DNA from: Minisyncoccota bacterium
Lineage (GTDB): Bacteria > Patescibacteriota > Minisyncoccia > Phycocordibacterales > UBA918
Direction of reading: 5' to 3'
DNA: 64,000 nucleotides
Assembly (NCBI GenBank): GCA_040879435.1
Contig: JBBDKG010000013.1
Coordinates: 18,271 to 82,270 of the forward strand
The notes under the pieces are model-generated. The model worked only from the letters and a program-made list of their open reading frames with translations. It was not told the DNA's origin and made no database searches. Both the position numbers and the translations under genes were made by a program. Shown here piece by piece: positions 16,634 to 49,075 of this stretch; position 1 is the stretch's first letter; each line of letters starts with the position of its first letter.

Positions 16634-16667
16634 CGTGGTTCTCCTTCTTACGATGACTTCCGGTCCG

Positions 16668-16877
16668 TTACCGGAGCTTGAGTTTATTGATGGCATCCTC
16701 TTCACGCGAATCGGATACCGCCGGTCGTGCCGGGGCCGGCCGTGCGGCAGGCCCTGGCGGTTTCTTTTCTGCACGGACGGATGTTGTCGAACTCGACGAG
16801 AATCCGTCCGTGTATACATAACCGCCGCCAATGATGAGAATCATGACGATTACGGCTATGATGATGCGCCCTATCAT
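16668..16877 (-). CDS. small single-TM protein with a Pro/Ala-rich tail
   Basis: MIGRIIIAVIVMILIIGGGYVYT...; it lies between the 2-TM protein and the TAXI gene on the same strand. Confidence 0.35.
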   Translation of the reverse strand: MIGRIIIAVIVMILIIGGGYVYTDGFSSSSTTSVRAEKKPPGPAARPAPARPAVSDSREEDAINKLKLR

Positions 16878-16889
16878 GGTGCCTCCTTC

Positions 16890-17672
16890 CTAGGCCAGGA
16901 CTCTTTGCTTGTTGTCGAAGAAGTGAGGGGTCTGGAACGGCTCGTTGTCGTCCGTACCCGGATCCTTCTCATACGTGAGTCTGAGCACCTCCTGGGTGTC
17001 AGCATCCTTCTCGAGCAACATCTCGAGCTCGGCGAATGAGTCCGCGACGCTCTGTCGGACTGCGCCGATCGCCTCGCCCTTGAGGATCTCGTCGAGCGCA
17101 GCGTCGCCGCTGACGTTCTTGAGTTGACGCATGGCGCCGGAAGCTCGCTGAGCCCACTTGTGGTCCGCCTTCATGAAGCGGACTTTGCTGTGGTACTCCT
17201 GGAGCTGCTCCTCAGCGTCGCCAGCCTTGGTGCGAAGCACTGACACAGCGTTCTTCATCCGGTCCATCATTTCCTGACGGTCTGAAACGTCCTCATTCGG
17301 GAATTCCCTCTTGAGATCGTTCAGCTCATCCTGAGAGACCTTGTGTGCAGCCATCATTTGCTGCACATAGCTGACGAACTTATCGAGCGAGTTGCGCTTT
17401 TGCTGATAATCAAGCTCGAGCGTCTCGATCGGATTCATGCGAGCGTTCGCTTTCGCCAACTTGAGTGCCAGTGTCTTCATGATCCGAATGATCGAACCTG
17501 AGAAGAGGATGGCACCGGCGACGATCGCAGCGTAAACGCCGATCACCACCAGATTCGCCATCGCGAACGCTGCCATGCCGAGTACTGGACCCAGAATGGC
17601 GAGTACGAGAATGCAAACGAAGCCAAATACAGCCTTCTGCATTCCCGTCATTTCGGAGAATTTCGGCAACAT
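16890..17672 (-). CDS. 2-TM hairpin membrane protein with a cytoplasmic coiled-coil domain (possibly TelA/XpaC-like)
   Basis: ATG at 17670-17672 with an AGGAAGG Shine-Dalgarno sequence; two adjacent TM helices are followed by about 180 aa of helical, charged sequence. Confidence 0.45.
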   Translation of the reverse strand: MLPKFSEMTGMQKAVFGFVCILVLAILGPVLGMAAFAMANLVVIGVYAAIVAGAILFSGSIIRIMKTLALKLAKANARMNPIETLELDYQQKRNSLDKFVSYVQQMMAAHKVSQDELNDLKREFPNEDVSDRQEMMDRMKNAVSVLRTKAGDAEEQLQEYHSKVRFMKADHKWAQRASGAMRQLKNVSGDAALDEILKGEAIGAVRQSVADSFAELEMLLEKDADTQEVLRLTYEKDPGTDDNEPFQTPHFFDNKQRVLA

Positions 17673-17753
17673 CGAGGGATCCTTCCTTTGCTCGTTAATT
17701 GTCGAGATACTGCACAAAAATACCTGTGGACTTCACCACAGATTCCGGACGAG

Positions 17754-17782
17754 AGAGTATCACACATAGTATTGAATGTCAA
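17754..17782 (-). promoter_or_regulatory. consensus sigma70-type promoter (TTGACA-N17-extended -10 TGTGATACT) driving the TAXI island operon
   Basis: Read on the minus strand, the sequence is TTGACAttcaatactatgtgtgaTACTCT. Confidence 0.5.
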
Positions 17783-17818
17783 TATTTTCTGGAAAGGTTC
17801 CCCTCGGGGCAGTTCTAA

Positions 17819-17849
17819 GAAAAGACCGCACTTTCGTGCGGTCTTTTCT
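17819..17849. terminator. bidirectional intrinsic terminator downstream of rplE
   Basis: The sequence is gaaaagaccgcactttcgtgcggtcttttc. Confidence 0.8.
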
Positions 17850-17863
17850 ATATGTTGTTTGTC

Positions 17864-18412
17864 TTACGCAGCTACCTCCTCCTTCATGAGCGGCAGACCG
17901 ATATTTCGCAGGAATGCCTCTGCTTCCTCTTTGGACTTCGCGGTCGTCACGATAGTGATCGCGAACGAGAAGACGTCGCGGATATCCTCGTCAACGGTCT
18001 CCGGGAAGATAGTGTGCTCCTTGATACCGATGGTGATGTTCCCCATCTCATCAATGGCAGTCGGCTTGAGACCACGGAAGTCACGGGTCTGTGGGAGGGC
18101 GATATGCACCAGCTTGTCGAAAAAGTCGCGCATACGGGCGCCACGAAGGGTCACCTGGTATCCAACGACATCACCTTCACGAAGCTTGAACGATGCAATC
18201 GACTGACGCGCAGGTCGCGGTGCCGGCTTCTGGCCGGTGATGAGTGCGAGGCGATCCTGAATGAGGGCGATCTTTGCCTTGTCATCTACCTTGCCGGTAC
18301 CGACCGAGACCACGATCTTCTCCATTTTCGGCGCCTGCATCCGGTTGGTGTATGCAAAGGTGTCCTTCAAGGCATCGTAGACATGTTCGAGTTTTGCTTT
18401 GATTGGTTCCAT
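17864..18412 (-). CDS. rplE: 50S ribosomal protein L5
   Basis: MEPIKAKLEHVYDALKDTFAYTNRMQAPKMEKIVVSVGTG; the ORF track starts at an upstream TTG, and ATG 18410-18412 is preferred. Confidence 0.9.
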   Translation of the reverse strand: MEPIKAKLEHVYDALKDTFAYTNRMQAPKMEKIVVSVGTGKVDDKAKIALIQDRLALITGQKPAPRPARQSIASFKLREGDVVGYQVTLRGARMRDFFDKLVHIALPQTRDFRGLKPTAIDEMGNITIGIKEHTIFPETVDEDIRDVFSFAITIVTTAKSKEEAEAFLRNIGLPLMKEEVAA

Positions 18413-18437
18413 ACGCAAGTAGTTCTGGTGCTAATAA

Positions 18438-18737
18438 TTAAATGGTCTTTCCTGACGCACGTGAAATGCGTGACTTCGTATCTCCTTCCGTCTTGTATCC
18501 CACACGGACCGGCTTCTTCCCTTCAGTGAGGGCAACGTTTGAGATATGGATCGGAACGCTCTTCTCGATGATCTGTCCCTGTGAGCGGGTGCGGCGATTC
18601 TTCTGGTGACGGGTCACGACATTCACCCCTTCGATGAGCACTTGCTCCGTCTTCGGGAAGGCAGCGAGAACCGCACCGGACTTGCCTTTATCCTTGCCGG
18701 CGATCACCATCACATTGTCTCCTTTCTTGATCTTCAT
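18438..18737 (-). CDS. rplX: 50S ribosomal protein L24
   Basis: The product reads MKIKKGDNVMVIAGKDKGKSGAVLAAFPK (KOW motif). Confidence 0.9.
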   Translation of the reverse strand: MKIKKGDNVMVIAGKDKGKSGAVLAAFPKTEQVLIEGVNVVTRHQKNRRTRSQGQIIEKSVPIHISNVALTEGKKPVRVGYKTEGDTKSRISRASGKTI

Positions 18738-18741
18738 ATGC

Positions 18742-19113
18742 CTATACTACTTCAGGTGCCAATGACACGATCTTCTGATAACCGGCCTCTGAAAGCTCGC
18801 GCGGAATCGGACCGAACACACGGTTTGCACGCGGCTCCTTCTTTTCCTTGTCTACAAGCACGACCGCATTGTCGTCAAAACTGATGTACGAACCATCCAC
18901 GCGGCGGAACGGCTTGCGCTGTCGGACAACGACCCCGTACACGATATCCTTCTTCTTCGCCTGCTTTCGCGGTTCGGCGGTCTGTACCGAGAGCACGACC
19001 ATCTCGCCGAGCTCTGCGTACCGCTTCTTTGAGCCGCCGAGCACCTTGAACACCCGGCCGATCTTCGCGCCTGAGTTGTCCGTGATCTTTACGATTGATT
19101 GTGGTTGAATCAT
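18742..19113 (-). CDS. rplN: 50S ribosomal protein L14
   Basis: The product reads MIQPQSIVKITDNSGAKIGRVFKVLGGSKKRYA. Confidence 0.95.
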   Translation of the reverse strand: MIQPQSIVKITDNSGAKIGRVFKVLGGSKKRYAELGEMVVLSVQTAEPRKQAKKKDIVYGVVVRQRKPFRRVDGSYISFDDNAVVLVDKEKKEPRANRVFGPIPRELSEAGYQKIVSLAPEVV

Positions 19114-19120
19114 AAGCCGT

Positions 19121-19402
19121 TTATGAACCGCGAACGAGGGTGAATCGCTTCCGCTTGCTGATAGGCGTCGTCTCCTTTATCTCGACCTTCTCTCCGACCG
19201 CTGCCGTATTGCCAGCGTCATGCACGAGGTACTTCTTCGTCCGACGCAAGTATTTCTTGTATTTCGGATGTTTTGTATACCGCTCCACCGCGACCGTGCA
19301 CGTATCCTGCATCTTAGACGCGACCACCGTCCCGCGTAGCACACGGCCTCCCGCGGTGTTGCGGTCTGTCGTGGTATTCGTTGTTGTATGTTCAGTTGCC
19401 AT
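19121..19402 (-). CDS. rpsQ: 30S ribosomal protein S17
   Basis: The product contains RVLRGTVVASKMQDTCTVAVERYTKHPKYKK. Confidence 0.9.
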   Translation of the reverse strand: MATEHTTTNTTTDRNTAGGRVLRGTVVASKMQDTCTVAVERYTKHPKYKKYLRRTKKYLVHDAGNTAAVGEKVEIKETTPISKRKRFTLVRGS

Positions 19403-19413
19403 AAATATAAATG

Positions 19414-19638
19414 CTAGCGGGTTGCTTTCACGCGGCGGGTAACTTCGGTAAGTGCCTGTGCGACATGCTTTTTCGCGGTCCGTATCTTCCGTACATCCCG
19501 CAGTCCGGTCGTGAAGCGCTGCTCGCGCACAGTCTCACGCTCGGTCCGGATGAACTCCGCAAGGTCCGTATCGCTCATTTTTGAAATGTCATTCATGCTC
19601 GTCATAATCAGGTATGTATTATGCGCCCGTATCTTCAC
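19414..19638 (-). CDS. rpmC: 50S ribosomal protein L29 (true start probably internal, near 19596-19605)
   Basis: The product contains MSDTDLAEFIRTERETVREQRFTTGLRDVRKIRTAKKHVAQALT. Confidence 0.8.
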   Translation of the reverse strand: MKIRAHNTYLIMTSMNDISKMSDTDLAEFIRTERETVREQRFTTGLRDVRKIRTAKKHVAQALTEVTRRVKATR

Positions 19639-20053
19639 GGCGTACGAAGCGTGCCGTGAGCGGCAGCTTTGCCGTCGCCTTCCGCATCGCTTCGCGGGCT
19701 ACGTCTTCCGTTACTCCTTCGACCTCAAAGAGTACGCGTCCCGGTGCCACCTCGAACACGAAGTGGTCAGGGTCACCCTTACCAGAACCCATACCTACCT
19801 CAGCAGGCTTCTTGGTCATCGGCTTGTCAGGGAAGATGCGGATCCAGATCTTGCCGGTCTTGCCGAGCGTTCGGGAAATCACACGACGCGCTGCTTCGAT
19901 CTGATTCGATTTCACACGCGACGCGCTTGTCGCCTTCAAGCCATACGAACCGAACGCAACGGTAAGGCCACGCGTATCAGGACGACTTCGCTTTTCTTCG
20001 CTCTTGCGGCCAATTTGCCACTTGCGGTGTTTTACTTTCTTAGGAAACAACAT
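19619..20053 (-). CDS. rplP: 50S ribosomal protein L16
   Basis: The product reads MLFPKKVKHRKWQIGRKSEEKRSR. Confidence 0.95.
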   Translation of the reverse strand: MLFPKKVKHRKWQIGRKSEEKRSRPDTRGLTVAFGSYGLKATSASRVKSNQIEAARRVISRTLGKTGKIWIRIFPDKPMTKKPAEVGMGSGKGDPDHFVFEVAPGRVLFEVEGVTEDVAREAMRKATAKLPLTARFVRREDTGA

Positions 20054-20066
20054 AGGCTATTGTGAA

Positions 20067-20777
20067 TTATGAGCGCTCAGTGCTGCGCGCCGAGGTTTCA
20101 GTAGCGGCACGTGCGCGGCGATCTTCGAAGATCTCTCCGCGGTATACCCATACCTTGATGCCGATCACACCGTACGGGAGTGTCGCAACGACACGTGCGA
20201 AATCAATGTCAGCACGGAGTGTCTGAAGCGGGACCTGGCCACGCTTCAACTCCTCGCGGCGTGCCATATCAGCACCACCAAGGCGGCCGGCCACGATGAT
20301 GCGCACACCCTGCACGTCACGGTTCGCCATCACCTTCTCCACGGTCTGCTTCAACACACGGCGGAACGGAAATCGCTTCTCGAGTCCTTCGGCGACCATC
20401 TGACCGACGATCGCTGCACTTGATTCTGGGGAGCGGATCTCCTCAACGTCGATCTTCACCTCGGGCTTCTCCTCAAGCTTGAGCTTGCGAAGCAGCATAT
20501 CAATATCCTTCTTGAGTTTGGTCGCTCCTTCACCGGAACGGCCGATCACCAATCCCGGTCGGGAGGTCTTAATGAGTACACGAAGTAGTGTGTCATTACG
20601 CTCGATCTCAATCGCGTCTATTGACATACCTTTGAGGCGCCCAGATACCAGCTTGCGGATCGCGGCGTCCGTACGTAGGTACTCACGGTACTTCTTTGGC
20701 TCAGCAGCAAACCACCGGCTCCGCCAATCGCGGTTGATGCCGAGGCGCTGAATGAATGGATGTGCTACGTGTGTCAT
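20067..20777 (-). CDS. rpsC: 30S ribosomal protein S3
   Basis: The product has a KH domain and begins MTHVAHPFIQRLGINRDWRSRWFAAEPKKY; the start is taken as ATG 20775-20777. Confidence 0.9.
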   Translation of the reverse strand: MTHVAHPFIQRLGINRDWRSRWFAAEPKKYREYLRTDAAIRKLVSGRLKGMSIDAIEIERNDTLLRVLIKTSRPGLVIGRSGEGATKLKKDIDMLLRKLKLEEKPEVKIDVEEIRSPESSAAIVGQMVAEGLEKRFPFRRVLKQTVEKVMANRDVQGVRIIVAGRLGGADMARREELKRGQVPLQTLRADIDFARVVATLPYGVIGIKVWVYRGEIFEDRRARAATETSARSTERS

Positions 20778-20796
20778 GATAAATATGAAATTAGTA

Positions 20797-21117
20797 TTAC
20801 TCGCCGAGTTCAACGGTGATATGACTGTTCCGGCGGTTGATCGGTGACGAGCTGCCGCGTGCACGTGGCATGTATCGCTTGAGCGTTATGCCCTTGTCGA
20901 CAGTGACCCGCTCGATCGTGAGTGCCTCTGCGTGCTTCCCGCTCTGGACGGCGTTTGCGAGCGCTGACTTGATCACCTTCGCGAACGGCTCTGCAGCACG
21001 CTTATCAACAAACCGCAGCGTTGCGAGTGCATCGTTCACCTTCTTGCCACGGACCAAGTCTGCAATGAGCCGGACCTTTCGTGGTGACTGTCGGTAGTTT
21101 TTGAGTACTGCTTTCAT
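20797..21117 (-). CDS. rplV: 50S ribosomal protein L22
   Basis: The product reads MKAVLKNYRQSPRKVRLIADLVRGKKVNDALATLRF. Confidence 0.9.
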   Translation of the reverse strand: MKAVLKNYRQSPRKVRLIADLVRGKKVNDALATLRFVDKRAAEPFAKVIKSALANAVQSGKHAEALTIERVTVDKGITLKRYMPRARGSSSPINRRNSHITVELGE

Positions 21118-21126
21118 AGATGATTA

Positions 21127-21450
21127 CTATGCTTTCGCTGCCTTTGCTGCAGTGATCTCGGCCTCCTTCTTCTTCTGGTCGATCTCCTTCTGCATCTTAC
21201 CGCCGTGGCGATAGAACTTCTTTGTTGGGGCGAACTCACCGAGCCGGTGCCCTACCATCTCCTCGGATGGAGTTACCGGAAGGTGCTCCTTGCCGTTATG
21301 GACGCCGAAGGTGAACCCGACCATCTCAGGAGAAATGAGCGAATCGCGTGACCACGTCTTAACAACGCCGCCCTCGCCCGGCTTTTTGCCGGCGATCTTT
21401 TTAAGCAGCTTCTCGTCCACGTATGGACCTTTGTATAGTGATCGTGACAT
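21127..21450 (-). CDS. rpsS: 30S ribosomal protein S19 (with a short Lys/Ala C-terminal tail)
   Basis: The product begins [19 protein letters not shown]...[17 protein letters not shown]; the start is taken as ATG 21448-21450. Confidence 0.9.
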
Positions 21451-21657
21451 AGAAAATATGCGTACGGGGTATAACCTGCGTCCTAATGGTTGGTCAGAAC
21501 CCCGTGTGGAAGAAGGTAACGGCCTACCCCACACAAGTTCCCGACAATGTAGTGTGCCGTCTGCCCCAGAGCGGCATGCCGGCGAGACGTTGGAACGCGG
21601 GTGATAATACGCGAAACGGCTTGGCATGTCAACAGCATCTTAGTCAAAACGAAAGGG

Positions 21658-21683
21658 CGCCCGGGACCAACTGGTTCCCGGGC
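21658..21683 (-). terminator. probable terminator hairpin downstream of the NUDIX gene 21694-22209
   Basis: gcccgggaccaactggttcccgggc has an 8-bp GC stem, and the T-tract on the minus strand is weak. Confidence 0.45.
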
Positions 21684-21693
21684 TGCCGATAGC

Positions 21694-22209
21694 TCATACC
21701 GCGATGTCTCTGGACGGAAAGAGGAAAAGGACTTCGCGTTCCAGAAACCAGTCTTTCCACACTGGTTCGAGGATGACTTCCCTGCCATCAATCGGGAGTG
21801 GGTTGCCACGGAGTAAATAACGCATCTGTTCTCGGGAACACCAGAAGTGTCCCTTGGTCTCGTCCTTGCTCGGACGAAGCGTGCCGGTCACGTTGGTAGC
21901 GATATAGATGCGCCAGTGATGCCAGCTGCCCCCAGGCCGGCGGCACGGATTCTCCATCCGCCCTTCTGCCCAAGGAACCAGCTCGTTGGCAATGAGACCG
22001 GTTTCTTCTTGAAGCTCGTCGAGCGCTGCTTGCTCGTATCGTTTTTCTTCAGGATCGTCAGGATCGCCGTGGTCGTCGACGTGTCCTGCAGGCGCGGCGA
22101 AGCCAAAAGGTGGCTTCTTCCGGTCAATGAGCAGCAGTTTCTCATCCTGGAATACCAGGATTCCAACGGACGTATTGTCACACCGCCGTATGGCTTGGAC
22201 ATTGTTCAT
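21694..22209 (-). CDS. NUDIX hydrolase (inserted between rplB and rpsS)
   Basis: A NUDIX box (GHVDDHGDPDDPEEKRYEQAALDELQEETGL) is present; a GAGGAG Shine-Dalgarno sequence lies upstream. Confidence 0.8.
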   Translation of the reverse strand: MNNVQAIRRCDNTSVGILVFQDEKLLLIDRKKPPFGFAAPAGHVDDHGDPDDPEEKRYEQAALDELQEETGLIANELVPWAEGRMENPCRRPGGSWHHWRIYIATNVTGTLRPSKDETKGHFWCSREQMRYLLRGNPLPIDGREVILEPVWKDWFLEREVLFLFPSRDIAV

Positions 22210-22338
22210 GGAACCATCTCCTCTGTTGCAACTATAGGAACAGTACGTAATCTACCGAAAAAATCAACCGCACGAGTGATTGTGACTGAAGTGAGTAGGT
22301 GCTATAGTCTCCGTAAACAGCACCTTCTGGAGGATGAA

Positions 22339-22539
22339 ATGGCCGGACAAAAGACTGAGAAGCCGTTCGAATTCGACCCGTTCGTCAAGGATATGAACGA
22401 ACGCGCGCGGGAGGGTGTGTATGACCGTCCCGAAGCACTCGATGAGTTGCGTGCAAAAGCCTCGGCTGGCGATTTGGATGCCAAAGCCATGCTCGTGATG
22501 CACGAAGGCCTCGAACTTAACAAACGGTTCAGAACGTAA
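22339..22539 (+). CDS. small hypothetical protein (66 aa, acidic, helical)
   Basis: ATG 22339 with a GGAGGA Shine-Dalgarno sequence; the product begins MAGQKTEKPFEFDPFVKDMNERAREG. Confidence 0.3.
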   Translation: MAGQKTEKPFEFDPFVKDMNERAREGVYDRPEALDELRAKASAGDLDAKAMLVMHEGLELNKRFRT

Positions 22540-22580
22540 CTGATCTCGCCGCAAGGCCCGCAGCACCGCTGCGGGTCTTT

Positions 22581-23552
22581 CTATACCCGCGATTTCCTCT
22601 CTGCCGCCAACCACTCAACCACCTGCCCTATAACCGGCAGGTCACGTATGAACTCATGCACATTCCGATACGGACGGTGAAACGGAGTGTGGAAGAAGAG
22701 GACAATGAGTAGCAAGATACTTTGCGAGAAGGTAATACCCATCGTGAGCATGGTCCCGAAGTGGAACACAATGAGCAGAAATGCCCAGCTGCGCTGCAGC
22801 GACGGACGGATCATCACCCAGAACGCCGCTACCTGAATGAAGTAGAAGCCGGCGTAGAAGGGCCACCACCACTCCGGATGCATGATAACTGAAGGAGCGA
22901 GGATCGCCTCGCTCTGGAGCCGCAGGACCATATCGGCACTTTGGTACGCAAATGCCTGTACGTGCAATCCGTGGATCTCACCTGCCAGATACTGCGTCAC
23001 GACCGCGATCCACTTATGCATCCCGGCGAGTGTGTACGTGAGCATCACGAGCGCCTGCGCGAACCAGACATACAAAAGGAACGACCGTGCACGCGCAAAC
23101 GCCAGTCCGGCCTGATGCCACCCCGCAGGAAGGAAAACGAATACGAAGGAAGTATAGAGCCACCCGTACCACTGGTGATTGATGTGCCCAAACGAGCTTT
23201 CGAACGCATGCACCTGCCAGATCGCCAGAAACACGAGCATGCGGACAAGAAGGAAACGATGAAACAACAGGCCCAGCAACGAGGCGACGATGAACAGGAG
23301 CTTGACCACAGTCACCACCGTCGTGAACTCGAGTGATCCACTCCACCAGAGCGGCCAGAATGGGTCATAGCTTGTCCGGCCGGAGAACGATGCCTGGAGA
23401 AAGGTGAACGCAAGCAGCGGGATTACGTAGTAGTAGTATGAGACCAGCGTGCGCGCACGTGTAAGTGCCTGCGCATCACGCGCCCAAGCCGAGATAGAGA
23501 CCGGCCGAATATACGTGTGCCAAAGGTGTCTTGTTGTGCGTGCGATTTGCAT
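22581..23552 (-). CDS. polytopic membrane protein, Trp/His/Phe-rich (possibly HTTM/VKGC-like)
   Basis: ATG 23550-23552 lies 1 nt after the stop of the upstream gene; about 8 TM helices; the ORF-track N-terminus overlaps 23554-24027 in another frame and is rejected. Confidence 0.45.
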   Translation of the reverse strand: MQIARTTRHLWHTYIRPVSISAWARDAQALTRARTLVSYYYYVIPLLAFTFLQASFSGRTSYDPFWPLWWSGSLEFTTVVTVVKLLFIVASLLGLLFHRFLLVRMLVFLAIWQVHAFESSFGHINHQWYGWLYTSFVFVFLPAGWHQAGLAFARARSFLLYVWFAQALVMLTYTLAGMHKWIAVVTQYLAGEIHGLHVQAFAYQSADMVLRLQSEAILAPSVIMHPEWWWPFYAGFYFIQVAAFWVMIRPSLQRSWAFLLIVFHFGTMLTMGITFSQSILLLIVLFFHTPFHRPYRNVHEFIRDLPVIGQVVEWLAAERKSRV

Positions 23553-23553
23553 A

Positions 23554-24027
23554 TTATTCCAATTGACCCTTTCGCTCGAATGTCCCGAGGAGCACCTCTT
23601 CTTTGTACGTACCCGTTTTCCAGTACTCGACCGGGTCGATCCGCACACGACGCACGTCGTATCGAAACGGTTTATTTCCGAACAGATGCGAGACCCGTTG
23701 CTGATACATATCAATTCGCTCATCAGCACCCTTCTCGACCGCCATACCGAGCTCTTGCACGTCGGGTATGTATTCAGTTGGCGATGAGTCCGCCGCTTCA
23801 GCGATGAATCTGAGTTCCGAGAACGCAAGTGGTGGATCATACACGCTGTCTCCCCACTGATGTACAGCGATGGTGTACTCGGTCCGTTCGTTCGGGATAT
23901 AGGAGAACAACTGCCACGCGAAGAGTGGGTATGATTCGTGTATCACAAAACCCTGAAGCGGCACCGCAAAGACTGCGTACCCGATAAGCAGCGTGATCAT
24001 ACCAACCTTCACCGTTCGATACTGCAT
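23554..24027 (-). CDS. membrane-anchored hypothetical protein (N-terminal TM plus extracytoplasmic domain)
   Basis: The product begins MQYRTVKVGMITLLIGYAVFAVPLQGFV; the gene is translationally coupled to 22581-23552. Confidence 0.4.
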   Translation of the reverse strand: MQYRTVKVGMITLLIGYAVFAVPLQGFVIHESYPLFAWQLFSYIPNERTEYTIAVHQWGDSVYDPPLAFSELRFIAEAADSSPTEYIPDVQELGMAVEKGADERIDMYQQRVSHLFGNKPFRYDVRRVRIDPVEYWKTGTYKEEVLLGTFERKGQLE

Positions 24028-27566: not shown

Positions 27567-27598
27567 AGAAAAACGGACGTGCAATGGTCAGCACGTCC
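27555..27598 (-). terminator. intrinsic terminator for gene 27588-28094 (hairpin overlaps the stop codon)
   Basis: The minus strand reads ggacgtgctgaccattgcacgtccgtttttctatac. Confidence 0.6.
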
Positions 27599-28094
27599 GC
27601 CAGAATTGTTTCGCCTCGGAATATTTCATTACGAGGACTCCTTCAGTAGGAAACCCGCCGTGGGAATTGACCCACGCGGTGATCTTCTTTGACTGAGGAG
27701 GATCGGTCCGCGCGCCCGTTTTGAGGTTTCTTACCTTGTGGAAACCGAATCGCGCGTGGCGTGTGATGCATACATTGGATCGGGCCTTATCTGCCAGTAT
27801 GGCGCATGCTGAGTTGCAGGCCCCATTGACCACCAACACCCGCTTCTCGCGCTGAACAATGCGCACGAAGTTATCGAAAGCGTGGACGACCCCACCGCTG
27901 TTTGCGTTGATCACGCACGGATTCCCGCACCCAAGCGGTCCGAAGAGTGCGCGTTCAGGATCTGAAACGCCGTACTCCAACTGGTGTTCGATGCGGCTTG
28001 GGCCGAAAACTACGTGCCATCCAAGTCCGATCACCACTGCTCCGAAAGAGCCGACGATGATCCACATGATGGTATCGAGAAATTTCGAGTTCAT
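27588..28094 (-). CDS. membrane-anchored ClpP/S49-fold (NfeD-like) serine peptidase candidate
   Basis: After an N-terminal TM the product reads INANSGGVV..VVNGACNSACAIL...ITRHARFGFHK, which aligns with ClpP INSPGG..GQAASMG..IMIHQP; the Ser and His positions are conserved. Confidence 0.45.
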   Translation of the reverse strand: MNSKFLDTIMWIIVGSFGAVVIGLGWHVVFGPSRIEHQLEYGVSDPERALFGPLGCGNPCVINANSGGVVHAFDNFVRIVQREKRVLVVNGACNSACAILADKARSNVCITRHARFGFHKVRNLKTGARTDPPQSKKITAWVNSHGGFPTEGVLVMKYSEAKQFWRTC

Positions 28095-28631: not shown

Positions 28632-29825
28632 TTAGGCGACGATCTTCGTTACCACACCGGCACCAACCGTCTTTCCGCCTTCGCGGATCGCGAACGTCTG
28701 CTTCTCTTCGAGCGCGACCGGAGCAACCAGCTTCACTTTGAAGGTCGCGGTGTCTCCCGGCATCACCATCTCAGTTCCTTCCGCAAGGGTCACTTCACCC
28801 GTCACGTCAGTGGTGCGGATGTAGAACTGCGGCTTGTAACCACCGAAGAACGGCGTGTGTCGTCCGCCTTCTTCCTTCGAGAGTACGTATACCTCAGCTT
28901 CGAAGTCAGTGTGTGGAGTAACTGCGCCTGAAGCTGAAAGTACCTGTCCGCGGTGTACGTCCTCCTTCTTCGTACCACGGAGGAGAATACCTGCGTTGTC
29001 TCCAGCCTGCGCTGAGTCAAGAGACTTGTTGAACATTTCAACGCCGGTCACTGTCGTCTTCGTTGTATCCTTGATACCAACGATCTCGATCTCTTCACCA
29101 ACCTTGACCTGTCCGCGCTCTACACGACCGGTCACTACCGTGCCGCGTCCTTCAATCGAGAAGATGTCCTCGATCGGCATAAGGAACGGCTTGTCGAGAT
29201 CACGTTCTGGAAGCGGGAAGTATGAATCCATCGCGTCCACGAGTTCAACGACCTTCTGTCCGTACTCACCTGCAGGATCCTCAAGCGCCTTGAGGCCTGA
29301 ACCGTGGATGATCGGCGCTTCAGCACCGTCGTATCCATTCTTGGTAAGGAGCTCACGAAGCTCTTCCTCCACGAGCATAAGCATTTCCTCATCGTCGACC
29401 ATGTCGCACTTGTTGAGGAATACGATGATCTTCGGTACACCCACCTGGTGCGCCAAAAGCACGTGCTCGCGTGTCTGAGGCATCGCACCGTCTGTTGCGG
29501 CTACCACAAGTACCGCGCCGTCCATCTGTGCGGCACCGGTGATCATGTTCTTGATGTAGTCGGCGTGACCTGGCGCGTCGATGTGCGCGTAGTGTCGGTT
29601 CGGGGTCTCGTACTCAGAGTGCGAGAGAGAAATAGTAATACCGCGCGCCTTCTCTTCCGGCGCTTTGTCGATATCTTCCACCGCCTTGAGGTTGGCGCTG
29701 TAGCCGTCGCCCTTCGCGTGAAGCACGTTGAGGATCGCAGCTGTAAGCGTGGTCTTACCATGGTCAACGTGACCAATGGTACCAACGTTCATGTGCGGCT
29801 TCGATCGGTCAAAATCTGCTGCCAT
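28632..29825 (-). CDS. tuf: elongation factor Tu
   Basis: The 397 aa product contains [21 protein letters not shown] and NKCD. Confidence 0.97.
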
Positions 29826-30167
29826 AATGAATATTGATTAGATAACTAAATAATCCGCACACAGCTGCTTTTTACAATGAAAAAGCCATGCACGAGCACT
29901 CAGGGGTTGCGGCGCGAGAAACGCGCGACCTCCGGGCACACGAACGTGTGAAAGAGCAAAGTATATTTACTCCCTACAGCAAAAGCTGTAACGGTGGCGG
30001 TATGGTACATGAGTGATGTGGTGTTTGCAAGCCTTATTCCTCGATCCCACGCCCTTTGCGAACGAAAGTGAAATCTTCATAGACAGTGCCAGGTTGTACA
30101 TAATGAAGAAATTGTGAAATTATGAGGTAAAGCAACGTCACCGATCAACCAGGAAAGGAGGAAGGCG

Positions 30168-30770
30168 ATGCGTGGAAGGTTCTTTTACTATATAGCGGTG
30201 CTTCTCTGCATACTGTCTCCTTCCATAGCGGCAGGTGACAATATGAAGACGGGTACTCAGACGTCCCAACCTATTGGCCATTACGACTTCTGCCAGGTAC
30301 TTCCTACAGAATGCACGATCCGACCGCAGAAGGTCGGACCAATAGTGCTCACCGACAAGGTCTGGCTCCTGATCGTCTCGACGAACAACGAGGTCAACAG
30401 TGCCGTTCGCCCGCTGAACGACATCGATATCTACGGCCGGGACGAGGTCTGGACCTATCCAGACAATGGAAGCGGTGACTGCGAGGACTATGCCCTCCTG
30501 AAGCGGCGCGAGCTCAATCAGGCCGGCATCTCGCTTGCCAACCTTCTTATCACCGTGGTGCGCAAACCCGACGGTGAAGGGCATGCGGTACTCACGGTCC
30601 GCACGAATACAGGCGATATCGTTCTCGACAACCTCACTGACGAGGTCCGGTCGTGGCGAGACACCGGCTACCGCTTTCTGAAGCGTCAGGCCAGCTATCA
30701 CACCGGCAGGTGGGTCAGTTTCGACCGACGTGATAGAGTCGGCCATCTAGCCTCCACTGATGGAAGGTAG
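30168..30770 (+). CDS. bacterial transglutaminase-like cysteine proteinase (BTLCP family), secreted
   Basis: The product has a signal peptide and reads GSGDCEDYALLKRRELNQAGIS...GEGHAVLTV (Cys/His catalytic arrangement); a strong Shine-Dalgarno sequence (aggaaaggagga) precedes it. Confidence 0.7.
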   Translation: MRGRFFYYIAVLLCILSPSIAAGDNMKTGTQTSQPIGHYDFCQVLPTECTIRPQKVGPIVLTDKVWLLIVSTNNEVNSAVRPLNDIDIYGRDEVWTYPDNGSGDCEDYALLKRRELNQAGISLANLLITVVRKPDGEGHAVLTVRTNTGDIVLDNLTDEVRSWRDTGYRFLKRQASYHTGRWVSFDRRDRVGHLASTDGR

Positions 30771-30787
30771 GGTCGCCACCCAAACGC

Positions 30788-30821
30788 AAAAGCCCCCGAC
30801 ACAGTGCCGGGGGCTTTTTTC
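30788..30821. terminator. bidirectional intrinsic terminator (BTLCP gene / fusA)
   Basis: The sequence is aaaagcccccgacacagtgccgggggcttttttc. Confidence 0.85.
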
Positions 30822-30836
30822 TATATGACCTCTTGC

Positions 30837-33002
30837 TTATTCAGCCGCCTCAGTGGTGATACCACGCGCCTTCTTGATCTCCATCGCCACGTTCGGTGGT
30901 ACGACCGCGTAGTGGTCGAACTCCATCACCATGTTTGCCCTACCTTCGGTCATCGAACGGAGTGTGGTGGTGTATCCGAAGAGTTCGGAGAGCGGCACCA
31001 TCGCCTTGATCACCTTCACCATGTCACGGTCCTCCATACCTTCGACGAGTCCGCGCTTTGATGAGATGTTTCCGTTGATGTCACCCATGAACTTCTCCGG
31101 AGTGGTGACCTCGATCTTCATGATCGGCTCCAAGAGGACCGGATTCGCACGCTGCGCTGCCTCCTTGAAGGCATTGATGCCGGCAAGCTTGAAAGCGATC
31201 TCTGAGGAGTCCACATCGTGGTAGCTACCATCGAAGAGTTCGACGGAGATATCTTCCATCTTGTATCCGGCAACGAGACCGCGTCCCATCGCCTCACGAC
31301 AACCCTTCATCACGGCCGGGATAAACTCACCCGGGATCACACCTCCCTTGATGTTGTTGACGAACTCAAAGTGATCCTCACGAGTGACGTTCTTCTTCAC
31401 CTCCTCGTCCTCAGCAAGTGGCACCATCGGTTTGATCCTGATCTTCACATGACCATACTGACCGCGACCACCAGACTGCTTGATATATTTATGCTCCGCC
31501 TCAGCTTCGCGCTGGATGGTCTCACGATACGCAACCTGTGGCTTGCCGGTCGCGGCCTCAACTCCGAACTCGCGCTTCATACGATCAACGAGGATCTCAA
31601 GGTGGAGCTCACCCATACCCGCGATGATCGTTTCCATCGTCTCGTCGTCGGATGAGACCTTGAAGGTCGGGTCCTCGTCGGAGAGCTTCTTCAGTGCAAT
31701 ACCCATCTTCTCCTGATCGTTCTTCGTCTTCGGCTCGATACGCATCGCGACCACTGGCTCGGGAAAGGTGATCTCCTCAAGTACGATCGGCTTGTCCTCA
31801 TCACACAGTGTGTGAGACGTCTTCACGTCCTTCAGACCCACACCTGCCGCGATCTCGCCAGCGTACACCTCTTCAACCTCTTCACGTTTATCTGCCTGCA
31901 GACGGACAATACGGCCGAGACGTTCTTTCTCTCCGGTGTTCGCATTGAACACATAGCTACCTGCTTTGACGGTACCTGAATACACACGGAAGAACGTGAG
32001 CGCCCCCACGAATGGGTCGGTCTGAAGCTTGAACGCAAGTGCGCAGAACGGAGACTCATCACGCGCCTCACGTGTCTCAGGCTCATCGGTCTTCGGATTC
32101 TTGCCTTCGATCGGCGGAAGGTCCACCGGTGATGGGAGGTAGTCCACGACAGCGTCGAGAATGCGCTGTACGCCGACGTTCTTCAAAGCCGAACCGGTCA
32201 TGACCGGGAAGATCTGGTTATCGATCACCGCCTTGCGAAGTGTCTTCTGGAGTTCCTCGTAGCTTGGCTCGTTCCCTTCAAGGTACGCGTTCATCTGCGC
32301 TTCGTCGTTCTCAACGATCCGCTCCACAAGCTCACCGTGATACTTTTCAGCTTCGGCTCGGTATTCATCTGGGATCTCGTGCTCGATCACATTCATTCCC
32401 ATGTCGCCCTCGAAGGTGTATGCCTTCATCTTGAGAAGGTCGATCACACCTGAAAGGTTATCCTCCTTGCCCCATGGGATCTGGAAACGAACCGCCTTTG
32501 GAGAAAGTCGTTTCAAAATAGTGTCGTATGAACGCTCGAAGTCGGCACCGACGCGGTCCATCTTGTTGATGAAACAGATACGCGGTACCCCTGCCTCGTC
32601 AGCATAGCGCCAGTTCGTTTCGGACTGCGGCTCCACTCCGGCCACGCCGTCGAACACCACGATCGCACCGTCCAAAACACGCATCGAACGCTTCACCTCT
32701 GCGGTGAAGTCGATGTGTCCCGGTGTATCGATGATGTTGAACGTGAACTTGTGCTCTTTGCTGGTTCGGTCAGGATTCAGAGAGGGCGTCCAGTCGCAGG
32801 AAATAGCGGCGGCGGTGATGGTGATACCACGCTCACGCTCCTGGTCCATCCAGTCGGTCACGGTCTCTCCGTCGTGTACCTCGCCGATCTTGTGGCTCAT
32901 GCCGGTATAGAAGAGCACGCGCTCGGATGTGGTGGTCTTGCCGGCGTCAACGTGCGCGACAATACCGAAGTTACGTAGTCTCTCGAGTGGGAATTTTCTC
33001 AT
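30837..33002 (-). CDS. fusA: elongation factor G
   Basis: The 721 aa product reads [24 protein letters not shown]... Confidence 0.97.
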
Positions 33003-33113: not shown

Positions 33114-33545
33114 ATGCCCAAGAAAATCGTCCTTAAGACAAAAGAAACGAAGCGAAGTCCTGCCGCATTCCTCAACACGGTCACTGACAAAGAACAGCGT
33201 ACAGACGCAAAGAAACTACTCGCACTGTTCAGGAAGGTGACCGGCAAACAGCCGAAGATGTGGGGACCGTCGATCATCGGCTTTGGTTCATATACGTACA
33301 CACGCAGCAATGGTGACGTTGGTGAGTTCCTTGCAACCGGCTTCTCACCACGCAAAGGAAACCTCACGCTCTACATAATGCCGGGATACCAAAATTACGA
33401 CGATATGCTCAAGAAGCTTGGCCCCCACAAACTCGGGAAGTCGTGTTTGGATATAAAGGAACTTGAGGATATTGATACGCAGGTGCTCGAGAAACTGATC
33501 AAGAGAGGGCTGGTTGACCTGAAGAAGACGCACCTGGTGAAATAA
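33114..33545 (+). CDS. DUF1801 (YdhG-like) domain protein
   Basis: The product begins MPKKIVLKTKETKRSPAAFLNTVTDKEQRTDAKKLLALFRKVTG, with the typical DUF1801 layout. Confidence 0.55.
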   Translation: MPKKIVLKTKETKRSPAAFLNTVTDKEQRTDAKKLLALFRKVTGKQPKMWGPSIIGFGSYTYTRSNGDVGEFLATGFSPRKGNLTLYIMPGYQNYDDMLKKLGPHKLGKSCLDIKELEDIDTQVLEKLIKRGLVDLKKTHLVK

Positions 33546-33583
33546 AAACGCACATCGTATCTCGATGTGCGTTTTCTTATTCC

Positions 33584-34303
33584 CTACTCCGCAAACCAAA
33601 CGGTGATCTCAAGTGCATCGTCGTGCTCCGGCAGACCGGATGCATTCGCCTTCTGGAGAATAAGGGTGCCGCGTTTCATAAAGTCAGGATCGCCTTCGGT
33701 GTATGGGTTCGTGAATTCAAGCTCTGCCGTGAATGGAACAAAGTTGGTCGTCATCCACTCATCCTGTGCGGTCGCAAACCCTTCTGCGATGATGAGCCCG
33801 TCCCAATCAGTGAGTACTATCGGGAACGTCGCCTCAAAGTACCACTGTCCGCGTGCCTCACCTTCGATAGTGAGCGGGCTTTCGATAACCGAATCAACGG
33901 TCGGCGTTGTGAGCCGGATCAACTCTTCGTCGTCTTCCTCCTCGACCACAACATCTCCTGAGGTACAACCTTCGAACATCACCTCACCGTCAACAAGCAC
34001 GACTGATTCGGCACCCTTGTTCCAGAATACGAACGATTCATCACTGTTCGTGTATCGCGCGCCGGACGCCGCAACTGCAGGCGTGAGTTCATATGGTGTG
34101 TCGTTCAGAGTGAGGACAAGGCTCTCGTCCTCGAGAAACTCTGTTTTGAGCATCGTACCGTCTGAACAGGTCAGTGTCTCCGTGTGTACTACAACTCGAT
34201 CATCAGGATCAAGTTCAGCACTATTTGGTAGCGTAAAGTATACAAATAGTGCACCGGCAACAACGACCGCAAGTCCAAAGAGTATAAGAAGGAATGTTTT
34301 CAT
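33584..34303 (-). CDS. membrane-anchored protein with an MliC-like N-domain and a Gmad2/GerM-type Ig-like C-domain
   Basis: An N-terminal TM is followed by CSDG..ARYTNSDESFVFWNKG (MliC-like), and the C-terminus reads GEARGQWYFEATFPIVLTDWDGLIIAEG...WMTTNFVPF (Gmad2 signature). Confidence 0.55.
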   Translation of the reverse strand: MKTFLLILFGLAVVVAGALFVYFTLPNSAELDPDDRVVVHTETLTCSDGTMLKTEFLEDESLVLTLNDTPYELTPAVAASGARYTNSDESFVFWNKGAESVVLVDGEVMFEGCTSGDVVVEEEDDEELIRLTTPTVDSVIESPLTIEGEARGQWYFEATFPIVLTDWDGLIIAEGFATAQDEWMTTNFVPFTAELEFTNPYTEGDPDFMKRGTLILQKANASGLPEHDDALEITVWFAE

Positions 34304-34413
34304 ACGCTGCTAGCGTACCATACCTATCATGAAGCGGAAGTGGTGTAATAGCGCTCGCTCCTTCCCCCTGATTGTGTATACTGCGGCTAGAAAGCCCGAA
34401 CAGGAGACCTGAA

Positions 34414-34884
34414 ATGGGGATTGAAATCGAACGAAAGTTTCTTCCGAAAAACGATGACTGGCGCAACTTCGCCACCGATCCTGCGACCATACGGCAAGGA
34501 TACCTCGCGAGAGAATACGGCAACGTTGTTCGTGTACGGATCACCGATATCGAAGGTACTACGACTTCGCAGCTATGTATCAAAGGGCTCAAGCAGGGTG
34601 GTGAAATTCCCGAGTACGAGGTTTCGATACCTCACGACATGGCACTCGAACTGTTCAAGCTATGCGAATGGAGTATCAAGAAGATCCGCCGTCATGTTTA
34701 TGCTGGCGACCACACCTTTGAAATCGATGAATTCGCGGGAAATCTGCGAGGACTAGTGGTCATCGAAGTGGAACTAGGGTCTGTCGGCGAGCAAGTTGAT
34801 CTGCCAGACTGGATCGGGAAGGAAATCACCGACGACCCACGGTACAACAATGCTCACCTCTGCGAACATGGCGTTCCGGGGTGA
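34414..34884 (+). CDS. CYTH-domain protein (triphosphate tunnel metalloenzyme / class IV adenylate cyclase-like)
   Basis: The product begins MGIEIERKFL (ExExK motif); an AGGAGA Shine-Dalgarno sequence lies upstream. Confidence 0.65.
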   Translation: MGIEIERKFLPKNDDWRNFATDPATIRQGYLAREYGNVVRVRITDIEGTTTSQLCIKGLKQGGEIPEYEVSIPHDMALELFKLCEWSIKKIRRHVYAGDHTFEIDEFAGNLRGLVVIEVELGSVGEQVDLPDWIGKEITDDPRYNNAHLCEHGVPG

Positions 34885-40351: not shown

Positions 40352-41839
40352 TCAAACATCTGACAAGTCCGCCCGTATACTTTGACGCCGCGATACATAC
40401 CATATTCCCACACCCATGACCACATATGCACCGACCATAAGGGAAAAAGGAAAGGCCGGTACGACAAAGGCAGCGAACGGGAGTGTTGCGAACCATCCAG
40501 CAACTTCGAGTATATAGAGGAGCGATAGATACGCGAGGAACGCGAACGGCATCGCTGCAACAGAAGACAGCGCAGCAACGACGCCGGTGCAGAATGTGAG
40601 GAGCATCGCGAGTGGCACCATCGGAAGTACCAATACGTTCACAACGACCGACACCACCGAGAACTCACCGATCTGATACAGCAAGAGTGGCCAGACGATC
40701 AGCTGGGTCGCGAGCGTGGCAACAAGGAACTCCCGCACACCGATCGTGCGAGGGACGAGGGCGAGCCGCGCCTCCAACTGCGGCGCGACCATAATGAGAC
40801 CGAGCGTTGCAAGGAACGAGAGTTGAAAGCCCGGATCAAACACAAGAAGGTACGGATTCACAAACAACATGGCAGCACCGGCGATGCAGAGCGCGCGCAA
40901 CACATCATACGTTTCGCCGAATCCTTGAGCTACCAGCAGAAGTCCTGCCATGATACTCGCCCGCAGTACGGTCGGACTGAGTCCTACCAGAAGCGCAAAG
41001 AGTGCTACCGCGATGATACCGACCACCATTCGTGCCCGTAGTCCGAAGAGGAAGGAGAGGCAGAACAGCACGAAGGCCACCACGAGCATGACGTTGTATC
41101 CGGACAGCACCACGATGTGGATGATACCGGTGCGACGGAACACCAGCTCCAACTCTTCGCCGAGCGCCCGTTTCTCACCAAGCAGAAGTCCTTCGCCAAG
41201 ACCGACCATCGGTTCGGGAATAAGGGACTCGATGTTGTCCATGAACGAGTGCTTCCATACGAGGAGTCCATGCATGAGCCAATTGCCGTCCCACCCATTC
41301 AGTCGCTCCACCTGCGGGTAGATCATCATGTATGAAACGCCGCGCGCTTGAAGATACCCTGGGTAATTGAACGTACGGCCGAGGTCGGTCTCGAACGATT
41401 CGGGTTTCGCAAGTTCTCCGGTCACGGCGACCTGTTCCCCGTACGCGTGATCACCGAAGGCATCAGTGATGACGAGAATACGGCCAACGTCCGTTTCAAT
41501 ATATAAATGTGTGGTCGCGCTGCGCACATCCGGTTCGCGGACGATCGTACCCTCAACGCTCACCTCACTCCCCACTCGGGACTCAAAGGCAGGAATTATC
41601 TCATTCCAATCAGCGATCTCCATACGGAGCACGCCGAAGGACATAAAGAGGATTGCGAGCGCTGCATACAGTACGGCAGGATCCGAGACTGCACCACGAT
41701 TCCGCTGCCACAGACACGCCAGAACAAACGCAAGCATCACGGCGGCGGCAATTGCCGGCAGACCGACCGCAAAGAACGAGCGGATGAAGATACCGAGTGT
41801 GAATGCGATGACACCGACATACACAAACGAGGCATGCAT
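40352..41839 (-). CDS. comEC: ComEC/Rec2 DNA-uptake channel, membrane portion (DUF4131 OB-fold plus Competence domain)
   Basis: The 495 aa product is polytopic, with an N-terminal OB-like region (VSVEGTIVREP) followed by the competence-domain TM bundle. Confidence 0.75.
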   Translation of the reverse strand: MHASFVYVGVIAFTLGIFIRSFFAVGLPAIAAAVMLAFVLACLWQRNRGAVSDPAVLYAALAILFMSFGVLRMEIADWNEIIPAFESRVGSEVSVEGTIVREPDVRSATTHLYIETDVGRILVITDAFGDHAYGEQVAVTGELAKPESFETDLGRTFNYPGYLQARGVSYMMIYPQVERLNGWDGNWLMHGLLVWKHSFMDNIESLIPEPMVGLGEGLLLGEKRALGEELELVFRRTGIIHIVVLSGYNVMLVVAFVLFCLSFLFGLRARMVVGIIAVALFALLVGLSPTVLRASIMAGLLLVAQGFGETYDVLRALCIAGAAMLFVNPYLLVFDPGFQLSFLATLGLIMVAPQLEARLALVPRTIGVREFLVATLATQLIVWPLLLYQIGEFSVVSVVVNVLVLPMVPLAMLLTFCTGVVAALSSVAAMPFAFLAYLSLLYILEVAGWFATLPFAAFVVPAFPFSLMVGAYVVMGVGIWYVSRRQSIRADLSDV

Positions 41840-49067: not shown

Positions 49068-49075
49068 ACTGCAAC

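Follow-up and report, generated by a model that had tools for sequence, protein, structure and literature searches.

In the 64,000-nucleotide stretch of contig JBBDKG010000013.1 analysed here (the window), the genes of the elongation factors EF-Tu (tuf) and EF-G (fusA) are separated by a gene on the opposite strand that encodes a 200-residue protein of the BTLCP family, the bacterial transglutaminase-like cysteine proteases. A first-pass annotation of this DNA had placed such a gene here, and all of its features lie where it had put them. The source, judging by the NCBI records of the identical proteins, is a Candidatus Paceibacterota metagenome-assembled genome (MAG) of the Candidate Phyla Radiation (CPR, or Patescibacteria; the phylum is now named Minisyncoccota). 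Its nearest EF-G relatives among species-representative genomes are MAGs of Patescibacteria type (65-86% identity), whose record names vary, Kaiserbacteria, Nomurabacteria and Saccharibacteria among them, and its EF-Tu and EF-G are 88-90% and 81-86% identical, respectively, to those of related Paceibacterota loci. The window also has the typical content of such genomes, namely comEC, a cluster of type IV pilus genes and a ribosomal superoperon among whose members additional genes are scattered.

The assignment of the protein, which contains the motifs GSGDCEDYALL and GHAVLTV, to its family is borne out by a match to Pfam PF06035 (Peptidase_C93/BTLCP) over nearly the full profile (E 2e-61, 207 bits vs a cutoff of 27, profile positions 2-160 of 162), the domain occupying residues 29-188. 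The triad formed by Cys105, His139 and Asp154, within GDCED...GHAVL...VLDN, aligns to the LapG structures 4U65_E (Pseudomonas fluorescens) and 4FGO (Legionella pneumophila), which are the best sequence matches in the PDB, and it is unchanged across 30 homologues, in whose alignment the window protein keeps all 60 invariant columns. The segment G103-D104-C105-E106-D107 is likewise invariant in that alignment and the same in the aligned LapG sequences; in it, D104, E106 and D107 flank the nucleophile (D-C-E-D, a proposed Ca2+ site). Boyd et al. (2012) and Chatterjee et al. (2012) are said to have found that the acidic residues flanking this cysteine coordinate Ca2+ in LapG, and by analogy the window protease is probably Ca2+-dependent. 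In the AlphaFold2 model, the core of which has pLDDT values of 84-97, the protein adopts a transglutaminase-like (papain-like) fold, and the top six Foldseek matches in the PDB are all LapG chains (probability 1.0; rmsd 2.8 Å over 110 residues). This fold would also suit a transglutaminase (cross-linker) or a deamidase working on envelope components rather than a protease, and the literature leaves both cross-linking and deamidation open for BTLCP domains, the target of HvyA being not known (PMC4241560). However, LapG enzymes, the only members with a demonstrated reaction, are proteases with the same triad (PMC3032545), and it is LapG structures that the model matches best, so that we regard a cross-linking or deamidating enzyme as unlikely.

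The proposed secretion signal consists, on inspection, of MRGR, a 16-residue hydrophobic stretch and SIAA/GD, and a similar N-terminus is kept in sister genes of other CPR genomes (P0023, P0024 and the R-type gene of locus L091, see below). The strong Shine-Dalgarno sequence noted by the first-pass annotation is a GGAGG at 30157-30161, 6 nt ahead of the ATG. Its shared bidirectional terminator is also present, as a hairpin with a GCCCCCG/CGGGGGC stem, preceded by an A-run and followed by a T-run, within the 66-nt gap to fusA; a simple terminator scan missed this hairpin because of its 9-nt loop, and folding was used instead, which gave -23.2 kcal/mol (z -2.8) on the plus strand and -30.4 (z -3.3) on the minus strand, a stability that none of 200 shuffles matched. 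An antisense open reading frame (ORF) that overlaps the gene (30138-30746, minus strand) had no family match in the Pfam scan. Taking this evidence together with the points set out below, we give a probability of about 70% to the overall reading in which 30168-30770 functionally encodes a Sec-exported BTLCP cysteine protease, lies in a recurrent cassette slot and goes back to an old capture from alphaproteobacteria.

The first-pass annotation held that fusA and tuf are normally adjacent, which applies to distant bacteria (gap of 50-250 nt) and not to this lineage: among 14 relatives whose EF-Tu is at least 84% identical, 11 have a gap of 1.0-4.6 kb and three one of 300-400 nt. In Kaiserbacteria-like relatives the cargo of the gap varies from genome to genome and consists mostly of predicted secreted or membrane proteins, many without a family match; a PKD and peptidoglycan-binding protein (L008) and a HAD phosphatase (L024) are examples. 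In comparisons between genomes, nucleotide homology breaks off shortly before the tuf promoter on its upstream side and is regained at the stop codon of fusA, and these comparisons show that the interval is a lineage-specific cassette slot reaching from the one point to the other. A BTLCP-family gene occupies it, in the same position and on the same strand, in at least eight other related assemblies (at least nine with the window), found at loci L012, L088, L089, L090, L091-93, L094, L095 and L096-97, the further ones through the tree neighbours of the window protein and the relatives of the L012 protein. The variable cargo of relatives and the recurrence of the BTLCP gene indicate a recurrent cassette slot, not a one-off insertion. 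The BTLCP cassettes stand on the opposite strand and have their own promoter region, a strong Shine-Dalgarno sequence and their own terminator, with hairpins comparable to that of the window after their stop codons. Their genomes, that of the window apart, are mutually close (91-96% identity in EF-G and 96-99% in EF-Tu), whereas the window genome is 81-84% identical to them in EF-G and 88-93% in EF-Tu, the 93% being over a 92-residue fragment.

The start codons of tuf and of the BTLCP gene diverge, with 342 nt between them (29826-30167), and the first-pass annotation read this interval as a divergent promoter region. The genes are indeed divergent, but most of the interval is taken up by the promoter and leader of tuf, and about 137 nt belong to the BTLCP gene. 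Roughly 200 nt next to tuf are strongly conserved in the alignment with relatives. A promoter-like element with the pattern TTGCA(A/T)-N17/18-TAnnAT is conserved in the 17 loci where a regular-expression scan found it, a conservation which suggests that 30002-30030 acts as the tuf promoter. The putative structured leader that follows contains a hairpin (29894-29941) with 20 pairs by RNAalifold, 14 of them with compensatory double changes; 92.8% of its cells are paired, against 23-54% in slid controls, and its covariation score of 0.50 compares with 0.25 in shuffled alignments, none of the 500 shuffles reaching it. As the MAFFT alignment is out of register for the 5' hairpin, the structure rests on this central one. 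An nhmmer profile of the leader matched each of the 24 locus records in which EF-Tu is at least 84% identical, irrespective of the gene upstream, and had no match in loci more distant than that. The element usually ends 20-29 nt before the tuf ATG, ahead of which there is no obvious Shine-Dalgarno sequence. Searches of Rfam with the leader gave no match even at E up to 10, and the intergenic region as a whole contains no tRNA genes or known RNA families. We consider the leader a candidate for a new cis-regulatory RNA. Given that the conservation of promoter and leader does not depend on which gene lies upstream, the interval is mainly the control region of tuf; on the BTLCP side, a promoter scan gave a sigma-70-like match (TTCATA-17-CATAAT, 30076-30104) that fits at 9 of 12 positions and is not above chance.

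These observations bear on the picture in which a unique insertion split a contiguous fusA-tuf pair and left an orphan LapG-like protease, deprived of its cyclic di-GMP partner and co-regulated with tuf from a shared divergent promoter. The divergent arrangement across 342 nt and the short gap of distant bacteria are what it would predict, as is the absence of cyclic di-GMP genes, also remarked upon in the first-pass annotation: among the 56 window ORFs scanned, none has a GGDEF, EAL, HAMP-LapD, PilZ, HD-GYP or type I secretion system domain. Against it stand the filled slot of 11 of the 14 close relatives and the BTLCP genes at the same place in other assemblies, and a tuf promoter and leader that are kept whatever lies upstream. 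Nor is the missing partner an anomaly, for the nearest Rhizobiales homologues and the alphaproteobacterial HvyA are likewise without such neighbours, and the former never had them. Finally, with the LapG equivalog model NF045674 the window protein reaches 36.8 bits, far short of the cutoff of 320, which means that it is not a LapG orthologue. Uniqueness and LapG orthology are thus largely refuted, co-regulation with tuf finds no support in these results, and the picture as a whole is very unlikely.

The BTLCP genes in the slot fall into three lineages, X, K and R, which identities of 16-32% between types and neighbour-joining (NJ) analysis (81 sequences, 197 columns, 100 bootstraps) show to be old and deeply divergent. 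The window gene is of the R type, and R-type genes are found at the same site in four other CPR lineages. X proteins are catalytically intact and group with P0155, P0157 and P0187 in the NJ tree, the first and the last of which lie in the same slot. K proteins, a family of at least 11 clusters, have lost the nucleophilic cysteine, replaced by methionine or another residue, and some lack the histidine as well; with seven additional Cys-less clusters counted among them, they are monophyletic in 100 of 100 bootstraps and are joined with R in none. In the case of L012 (Kaiserbacteria RIFOXYB1_FULL_46_14), for instance, a 217-residue PF06035 protein (E 5e-18) at the same site and in the same orientation is 27% identical to that of the window and has Met in place of the catalytic Cys. 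The possibility that K is a fast-diverged orthologue of R, or its in-situ replacement, was rejected on the tandem of K and R genes in L091 and on the same bootstraps. In that tandem the K gene lies directly upstream of the active-looking R gene, and the two may form a pseudoenzyme-enzyme pair.

The X and K cassettes have in common a promoter-like TTGAAA-N17-TAT..T, and the K protein of L091 and the X protein of L094 a signal-peptide start, MFA(M/L)xTLK; judged from these sequences, the two cassettes are allelic. Between L096 (X) and L012 (K), dS in the flanks is 0.6 for tuf and 1.3 for fusA, and dN in the BTLCP gene is 0.91; between the K genes of L091 and L012, dN reaches 0.68 with a saturated dS of their own, at a tuf dS of 0.56. 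Set against that of the flanks, this divergence makes the cassette alleles look older than the flanks, or swapped between genomes. Additional genes accompany the BTLCP gene in the islands of relatives, which are homologous to each other, as L012, L088 and L091 have 141-residue proteins that share 60-65% identity. These are a conserved 141-residue cytoplasmic protein and a fast-evolving one of about 175 residues adjoining fusA (22-28% identical), neither of them in the window. The island proteins (141, about 175 and 184 residues) gave no match in Pfam, PHROGs or NCBIfam, and in the PDB only weak matches to artificial alphaRep repeat proteins; the 141-residue protein may be PD-(D/E)xK-like. For the adjacent island genes of L088 and L089, dS is 0.15 (BTLCP), 0.52 (141-residue protein) and 1.27 (174-residue protein), a gradation that suggests a mosaic history with recombination inside the island. 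A 6335-residue protein (P0136) that matched the K-type N-terminus in 27 stretches was discarded as a low-complexity artefact, a scallop serine-rich protein.

A slot that tolerates such varied cargo, with frequent gain and loss, could also house a decaying or functionless passenger, and the Cys-less K relatives, together with a dN/dS of 0.31 for R (L088 vs L089) that is relaxed relative to the 0.02-0.06 of the flanking genes, agree with this. However, the window ORF is intact and retains every invariant column, including the triad and the residues flanking the cysteine, it has a strong Shine-Dalgarno sequence and a terminator of its own, and R as well as K is under purifying selection, with dN/dS values that stay under 1 (for K 0.18, from L012 vs L090). 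The adjustment of its composition to the host, described below, further points to long retention, and we find a mere passenger highly improbable. In the case of K, the purifying selection indicates that the Cys-less proteins are probably functional non-enzymes.

The R lineage is shown to be specifically related to a chromosomal BTLCP kept in Rhizobiaceae and Phyllobacteriaceae, which places it with the alphaproteobacterial members of the family: the two form a clade in 99 of 100 NJ bootstraps. Among the best 120 database matches to the window protein, 60-77% identical, all named ones are from Rhizobiaceae, Mesorhizobium, Aminobacter or Oryzicola, and identity to Rhizobiaceae, Mesorhizobium and Aminobacter proteins is 71-77% locally and 66-67% over the alignment. 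In two Rhizobiales genomes, the gene sits in a conserved chromosomal neighbourhood, dnaK-dnaJ-...-pyrF-...-phaZ-BTLCP-comM-gshB. At the DNA level, similarity to Rhizobiales loci is 79% and confined to 30391-30715 within the ORF; no transferred flanking DNA was seen, and as only the ORF core is similar the boundaries of the captured fragment are not visible. The G+C content at third codon positions (GC3) of the window gene is 0.677, in line with the 0.55-0.71 of host genes and unlike the 0.75-0.81 of the Rhizobiales orthologues. The Shine-Dalgarno/5' untranslated string CAACCAGGAAAGGAGG is common to the R-type cassettes of the window, L088 and L089 and is not found in the Rhizobiales genes.

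With a MAG as the source and Rhizobiales as all of the closest named homologues, an assembly chimera or binning contamination, namely a Rhizobiales fragment misjoined into a CPR contig, has to be considered. Yet CPR genes lie on both sides within one contig, and both junctions are confirmed as real by a Logan assembly made independently (L001, SRR27977663), which shows 100% identity from the tuf start across the BTLCP gene and on into fusA. The R-type genes of other CPR lineages at the same site, the host-like GC3, the CPR-type Shine-Dalgarno sequence and a DNA similarity that is only 79% and limited to the ORF core likewise speak against a misjoin, which is exceedingly improbable. The reproduced junctions, GC3 and the leader string common to CPR R cassettes together argue against both contamination and a recent arrival.

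The transfer might also have run in reverse, BTLCPs being native to the CPR slot and the Rhizobiaceae/Phyllobacteriaceae gene coming from a CPR donor. The presence of three BTLCP lineages in the slot, the long residence suggested by the promoter and signal peptide common to X and K, and the 30% of bootstraps in which Rhizobiales are monophyletic with CPR-R outside would fit such a course. On the other hand, the next outgroup, P0163, which is sister to the clade of R and Rhizobiales, is proteobacterial by context (it sits amid RuBisCO, cbbX and katG genes), R joins X or K in 0 of 100 bootstraps, the R gene of L091 stands downstream of the K gene as expected of an added copy, and the 80 best X-type relatives in JGI metagenomes are high-GC, none adjoining tuf or fusA. 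BTLCPs are, moreover, particularly widespread in alphaproteobacteria (PMC4241560). A CPR donor is therefore quite unlikely, and we infer an old inter-phylum transfer in the opposite direction, in which an alphaproteobacterial gene was captured, adjusted to its host and inherited or exchanged within this CPR group.

Several points weigh against the functional, exported protease and against its proposed history. The NCBI product (P0001) starts at Met26 and has 175 residues, so that the part encoded by 30168-30242, with the predicted signal peptide, would be cut off; we favour the longer start at 30168 because of the GGAGG at the upstream ATG and the conservation of the longer N-terminus in the CPR sister genes. 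The signal peptide was recognised by eye. The distribution is patchy, as a hidden Markov model scan of 80 GTDB species-representative loci found a BTLCP gene within 6 kb of fusA in one; a scan of JGI metagenomes with a pattern from the X-type alignment, which was a generic one, gave no further cases, all 80 returned loci being high-GC and none adjoining tuf or fusA. The trees are NJ trees on about 200 columns, and within the clade of R and Rhizobiales, monophyly of the CPR-R genes reaches 21% and that of Rhizobiales 30% of bootstraps; with support this low for the inner branching, it is outgroup context and distribution that suggest how many transfers took place and which way they ran. Lastly, that the organism of the window has no outer membrane is an assumption taken over from CPR bacteria in general.

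All together, these results allow us to propose how the gene may have arisen and how its product may work. An alphaproteobacterial gene would have been captured long ago and fitted with a CPR-type ribosome-binding site and signal peptide, its codon composition would have shifted to that of the host, and it would then have been inherited or exchanged among CPR genomes. The enzyme would be exported through SecY and carry out Ca2+-dependent, LapG-like proteolysis of surface or envelope proteins; because CPR bacteria are thought to lack an outer membrane, we propose that it acts at the cell surface or outside the cell. Control would lie in the expression of the gene itself rather than in a LapD/cyclic di-GMP receptor. 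That it might act where the bacterium meets a host cell is a speculation. Carried further, this speculation would make the fusA-tuf slot a host-interaction locus of Kaiserbacteria-like CPR epibionts, in which X, K and R are old alleles swapped by homologous recombination with the ultra-conserved EF-G and EF-Tu genes as arms, and R, captured from a Rhizobiales host, is used against the envelope of that host, through adhesin release as by LapG or capsule suppression as by HvyA. We think this rather unlikely; if true, it would be the first genomic pointer to the host range of the lineage.

The main interest lies in the locus as a whole, where a recurrent slot houses three lineages of BTLCP genes, among them a Rhizobiales-type and a catalytically dead one, next to a new candidate tuf leader RNA. 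Descriptions of BTLCP proteases have hitherto concerned periplasmic enzymes of Proteobacteria, with LapG acting in biofilm release and HvyA in capsule control, and in the literature searched we found no paper pairing "transglutaminase-like" with Patescibacteria. An intact, long-retained copy, predicted to be exported, in a CPR bacterium would mean that the family is used beyond the diderm periplasm. In its specific kinship with Rhizobiales genes, the window gene preserves a rare and datable record of genetic exchange that links a CPR lineage to one bacterial order, which offers a testable lead for organisms with few known hosts. The slot, with its interchangeable secreted cargo and Cys-less paralogue, lends itself as a marker of strain-level variation in these genomes. 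The accepted view of how BTLCPs work is unchanged, and the impact is moderate.

Elsewhere in the window (Table 1), other genes also interrupt conserved clusters. A 168-residue ORF with one predicted N-terminal transmembrane stretch (27588-28094, minus strand) lies between rpsJ and rplC, where none of the related loci has it; database relatives number only 12, with 40-51% identity and one named Chloroflexota, and there is a weak match to phrog_19619. It was examined as a second Rhizobiales-derived gene and rejected, its relatives being of unassigned or Chloroflexota origin. Three non-ribosomal genes part rpsG from fusA (33114-34884), and homologues of the first two, the DUF1801 and Gmad2 genes, are near fusA in a few relatives (L021, L029 and L017). 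The ribosomal-protein superoperon (15608-23840) is broken by further non-ribosomal ORFs, including two unassigned ones of 275 and 419 residues, and some ribosomal proteins are unusually long (L23 127, S19 166 and S3 265 residues). The pilus cluster encodes a PilB-like T2SSE protein, a PilC-like T2SSF protein and two N-methyl pilin-like proteins, one of them with 586 residues and CarboxypepD_reg, SpaA and Big_1 domains; together with comEC, it could be surface machinery through which an exported protease matters. Across the 64 kb, neither tRNA and tmRNA genes nor any Rfam family reached threshold.

Table 1. Features of the fusA-tuf slot, of the rest of the window and of related loci (window positions unless a locus is named)
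Feature	Position	Strand	Basis or content
tuf, EF-Tu, 397 aa, left flank of the slot	28632-29825	-	Pfam GTP_EFTU, D2 and D3 domains
Putative structured 5' leader of tuf	29849-29997	-	Alignment of 16 loci, invariant blocks
tuf promoter-like element	30002-30030	-	Pattern conservation; -35 TTGCAA 30025-30030, 17-nt spacer, -10 TACCAT 30002-30007
Upstream region of the BTLCP gene, about 137 nt	30031-30167	+	Weak promoter match and Shine-Dalgarno sequence
BTLCP/Peptidase_C93 gene, R-type, 200 aa	30168-30770	+	Pfam PF06035
Predicted signal peptide, residues 1-22	30168-30233	+	Inspection
Catalytic codon, Cys105	30480-30482	+	
Catalytic codon, His139	30582-30584	+	
Catalytic codon, Asp154	30627-30629	+	
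Two-way intrinsic terminator hairpin, convergent BTLCP and fusA	30788-30821	both	Folding, A-run/T-run
fusA, EF-G, 721 aa, right flank of the slot	30837-33002	-	Pfam EF-G domain set
NMT1_3-like ORF, 407 aa	15608-16831		
NUDIX gene	21694-22209		
DUF1801 gene	33114-33545	+	
Gmad2 and MliC-domain protein	33584-34303	-	
CYTH-domain protein	34372-34884	+	
comEC	40352-41839		Pfam
Type IV pilus cluster	46984-53842		Pfam
K-type gene	L012:8623-9276	-	
K-type gene	L090:294-956	+	
K-type gene	L091:6001-6684	+	
Island genes	L088:1322-1747, 1787-2311	+, -	
Island genes	L091:7573-7998, 8041-8571	+, -	
Island genes	L012:8103-8525, 7558-8070	-, +	
Island gene	L094:6806-7360	-	
Layout	L088, L089		tuf, R-type BTLCP (62-65% identical to that of the window), 141-aa gene, 174-aa gene, fusA
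Layout	L090		K-type, 165-aa gene, fusA
Layout	L091-93		tuf, K-type, R-type, 141-aa gene, 176-aa gene, fusA; K and R in tandem
Layout	L094		tuf, X-type (236 aa, intact GDCED), 184-aa gene, cut ORF 84-96% identical to EF-G C-termini
Layout	L095		X-type between the starts of tuf and fusA
Layout	L096		Single X-type gene; complete tuf-BTLCP-fusA layout as in the window
Layout	L097		Single X-type gene; shorter contig, fusA side alone visible

Four known systems bear comparison with the window protein. CPR-C4 (PDB 7OB6/7PJO), the one structurally characterised CPR cysteine protease among the fold matches, has a papain-like core and is a weak match (E 4e-3); it belongs to a different family (12% identity, TM about 0.3), with no implied PF06035 match. 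LapG of P. fluorescens and L. pneumophila (PDB 4U65, 4FGO/4FGP/4FGQ) has the same Pfam family, fold, triad and D-C-E-D segment; its C135 is the essential catalytic nucleophile (PMC3032545), and calcium is bound near its active site (PMC4359373). In contrast, identity to the window protein is 21-25%, the window has no LapD receptor, type I secretion genes or LapA-type giant repeat adhesin (its largest ORF is EF-G), and an outer membrane enclosing a periplasm is probably lacking in the host.

HvyA of Caulobacter crescentus (orthologues SMc00998 and NGR_c12490) is, like the window protein, a stand-alone BTLCP with a Cys-His-Asp triad, and it is Sec-exported, as the window protein is predicted to be (PMC4241560). 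Alphaproteobacterial BTLCPs of this type are periplasmic enzymes regulated through their abundance, and the activity of HvyA is set by its own expression and not by cyclic di-GMP (PMC4241560). It differs in its 272 residues, in its capsule-export locus and in blocking capsulation in the periplasm, and some Rhizobiales paralogues fail to complement hvyA (PMC4241560); no Wza, Wzc or polysaccharide genes are among the scanned window ORFs, where the neighbours are fusA and tuf. The nearest counterpart is the BTLCP of Rhizobiaceae and Phyllobacteriaceae (Mesorhizobium, Aminobacter and MAGs; P0005, P0002, P0074), which is 66-77% identical and of similar length (205-209 vs 200 residues), with a predicted N-terminal signal sequence, an identical triad and GDCEDY, and no cyclic di-GMP neighbour. 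Whereas that gene resides in a large diderm genome, in the phaZ-BTLCP-comM neighbourhood and with a GC3 of 0.75-0.81, the window gene lies at the fusA-tuf site of a small CPR genome, with a GC3 of 0.68, a rebuilt Shine-Dalgarno sequence and a different N-terminus, and thereby adds to a known family of enzymes a member whose phylum and genomic setting are unusual.

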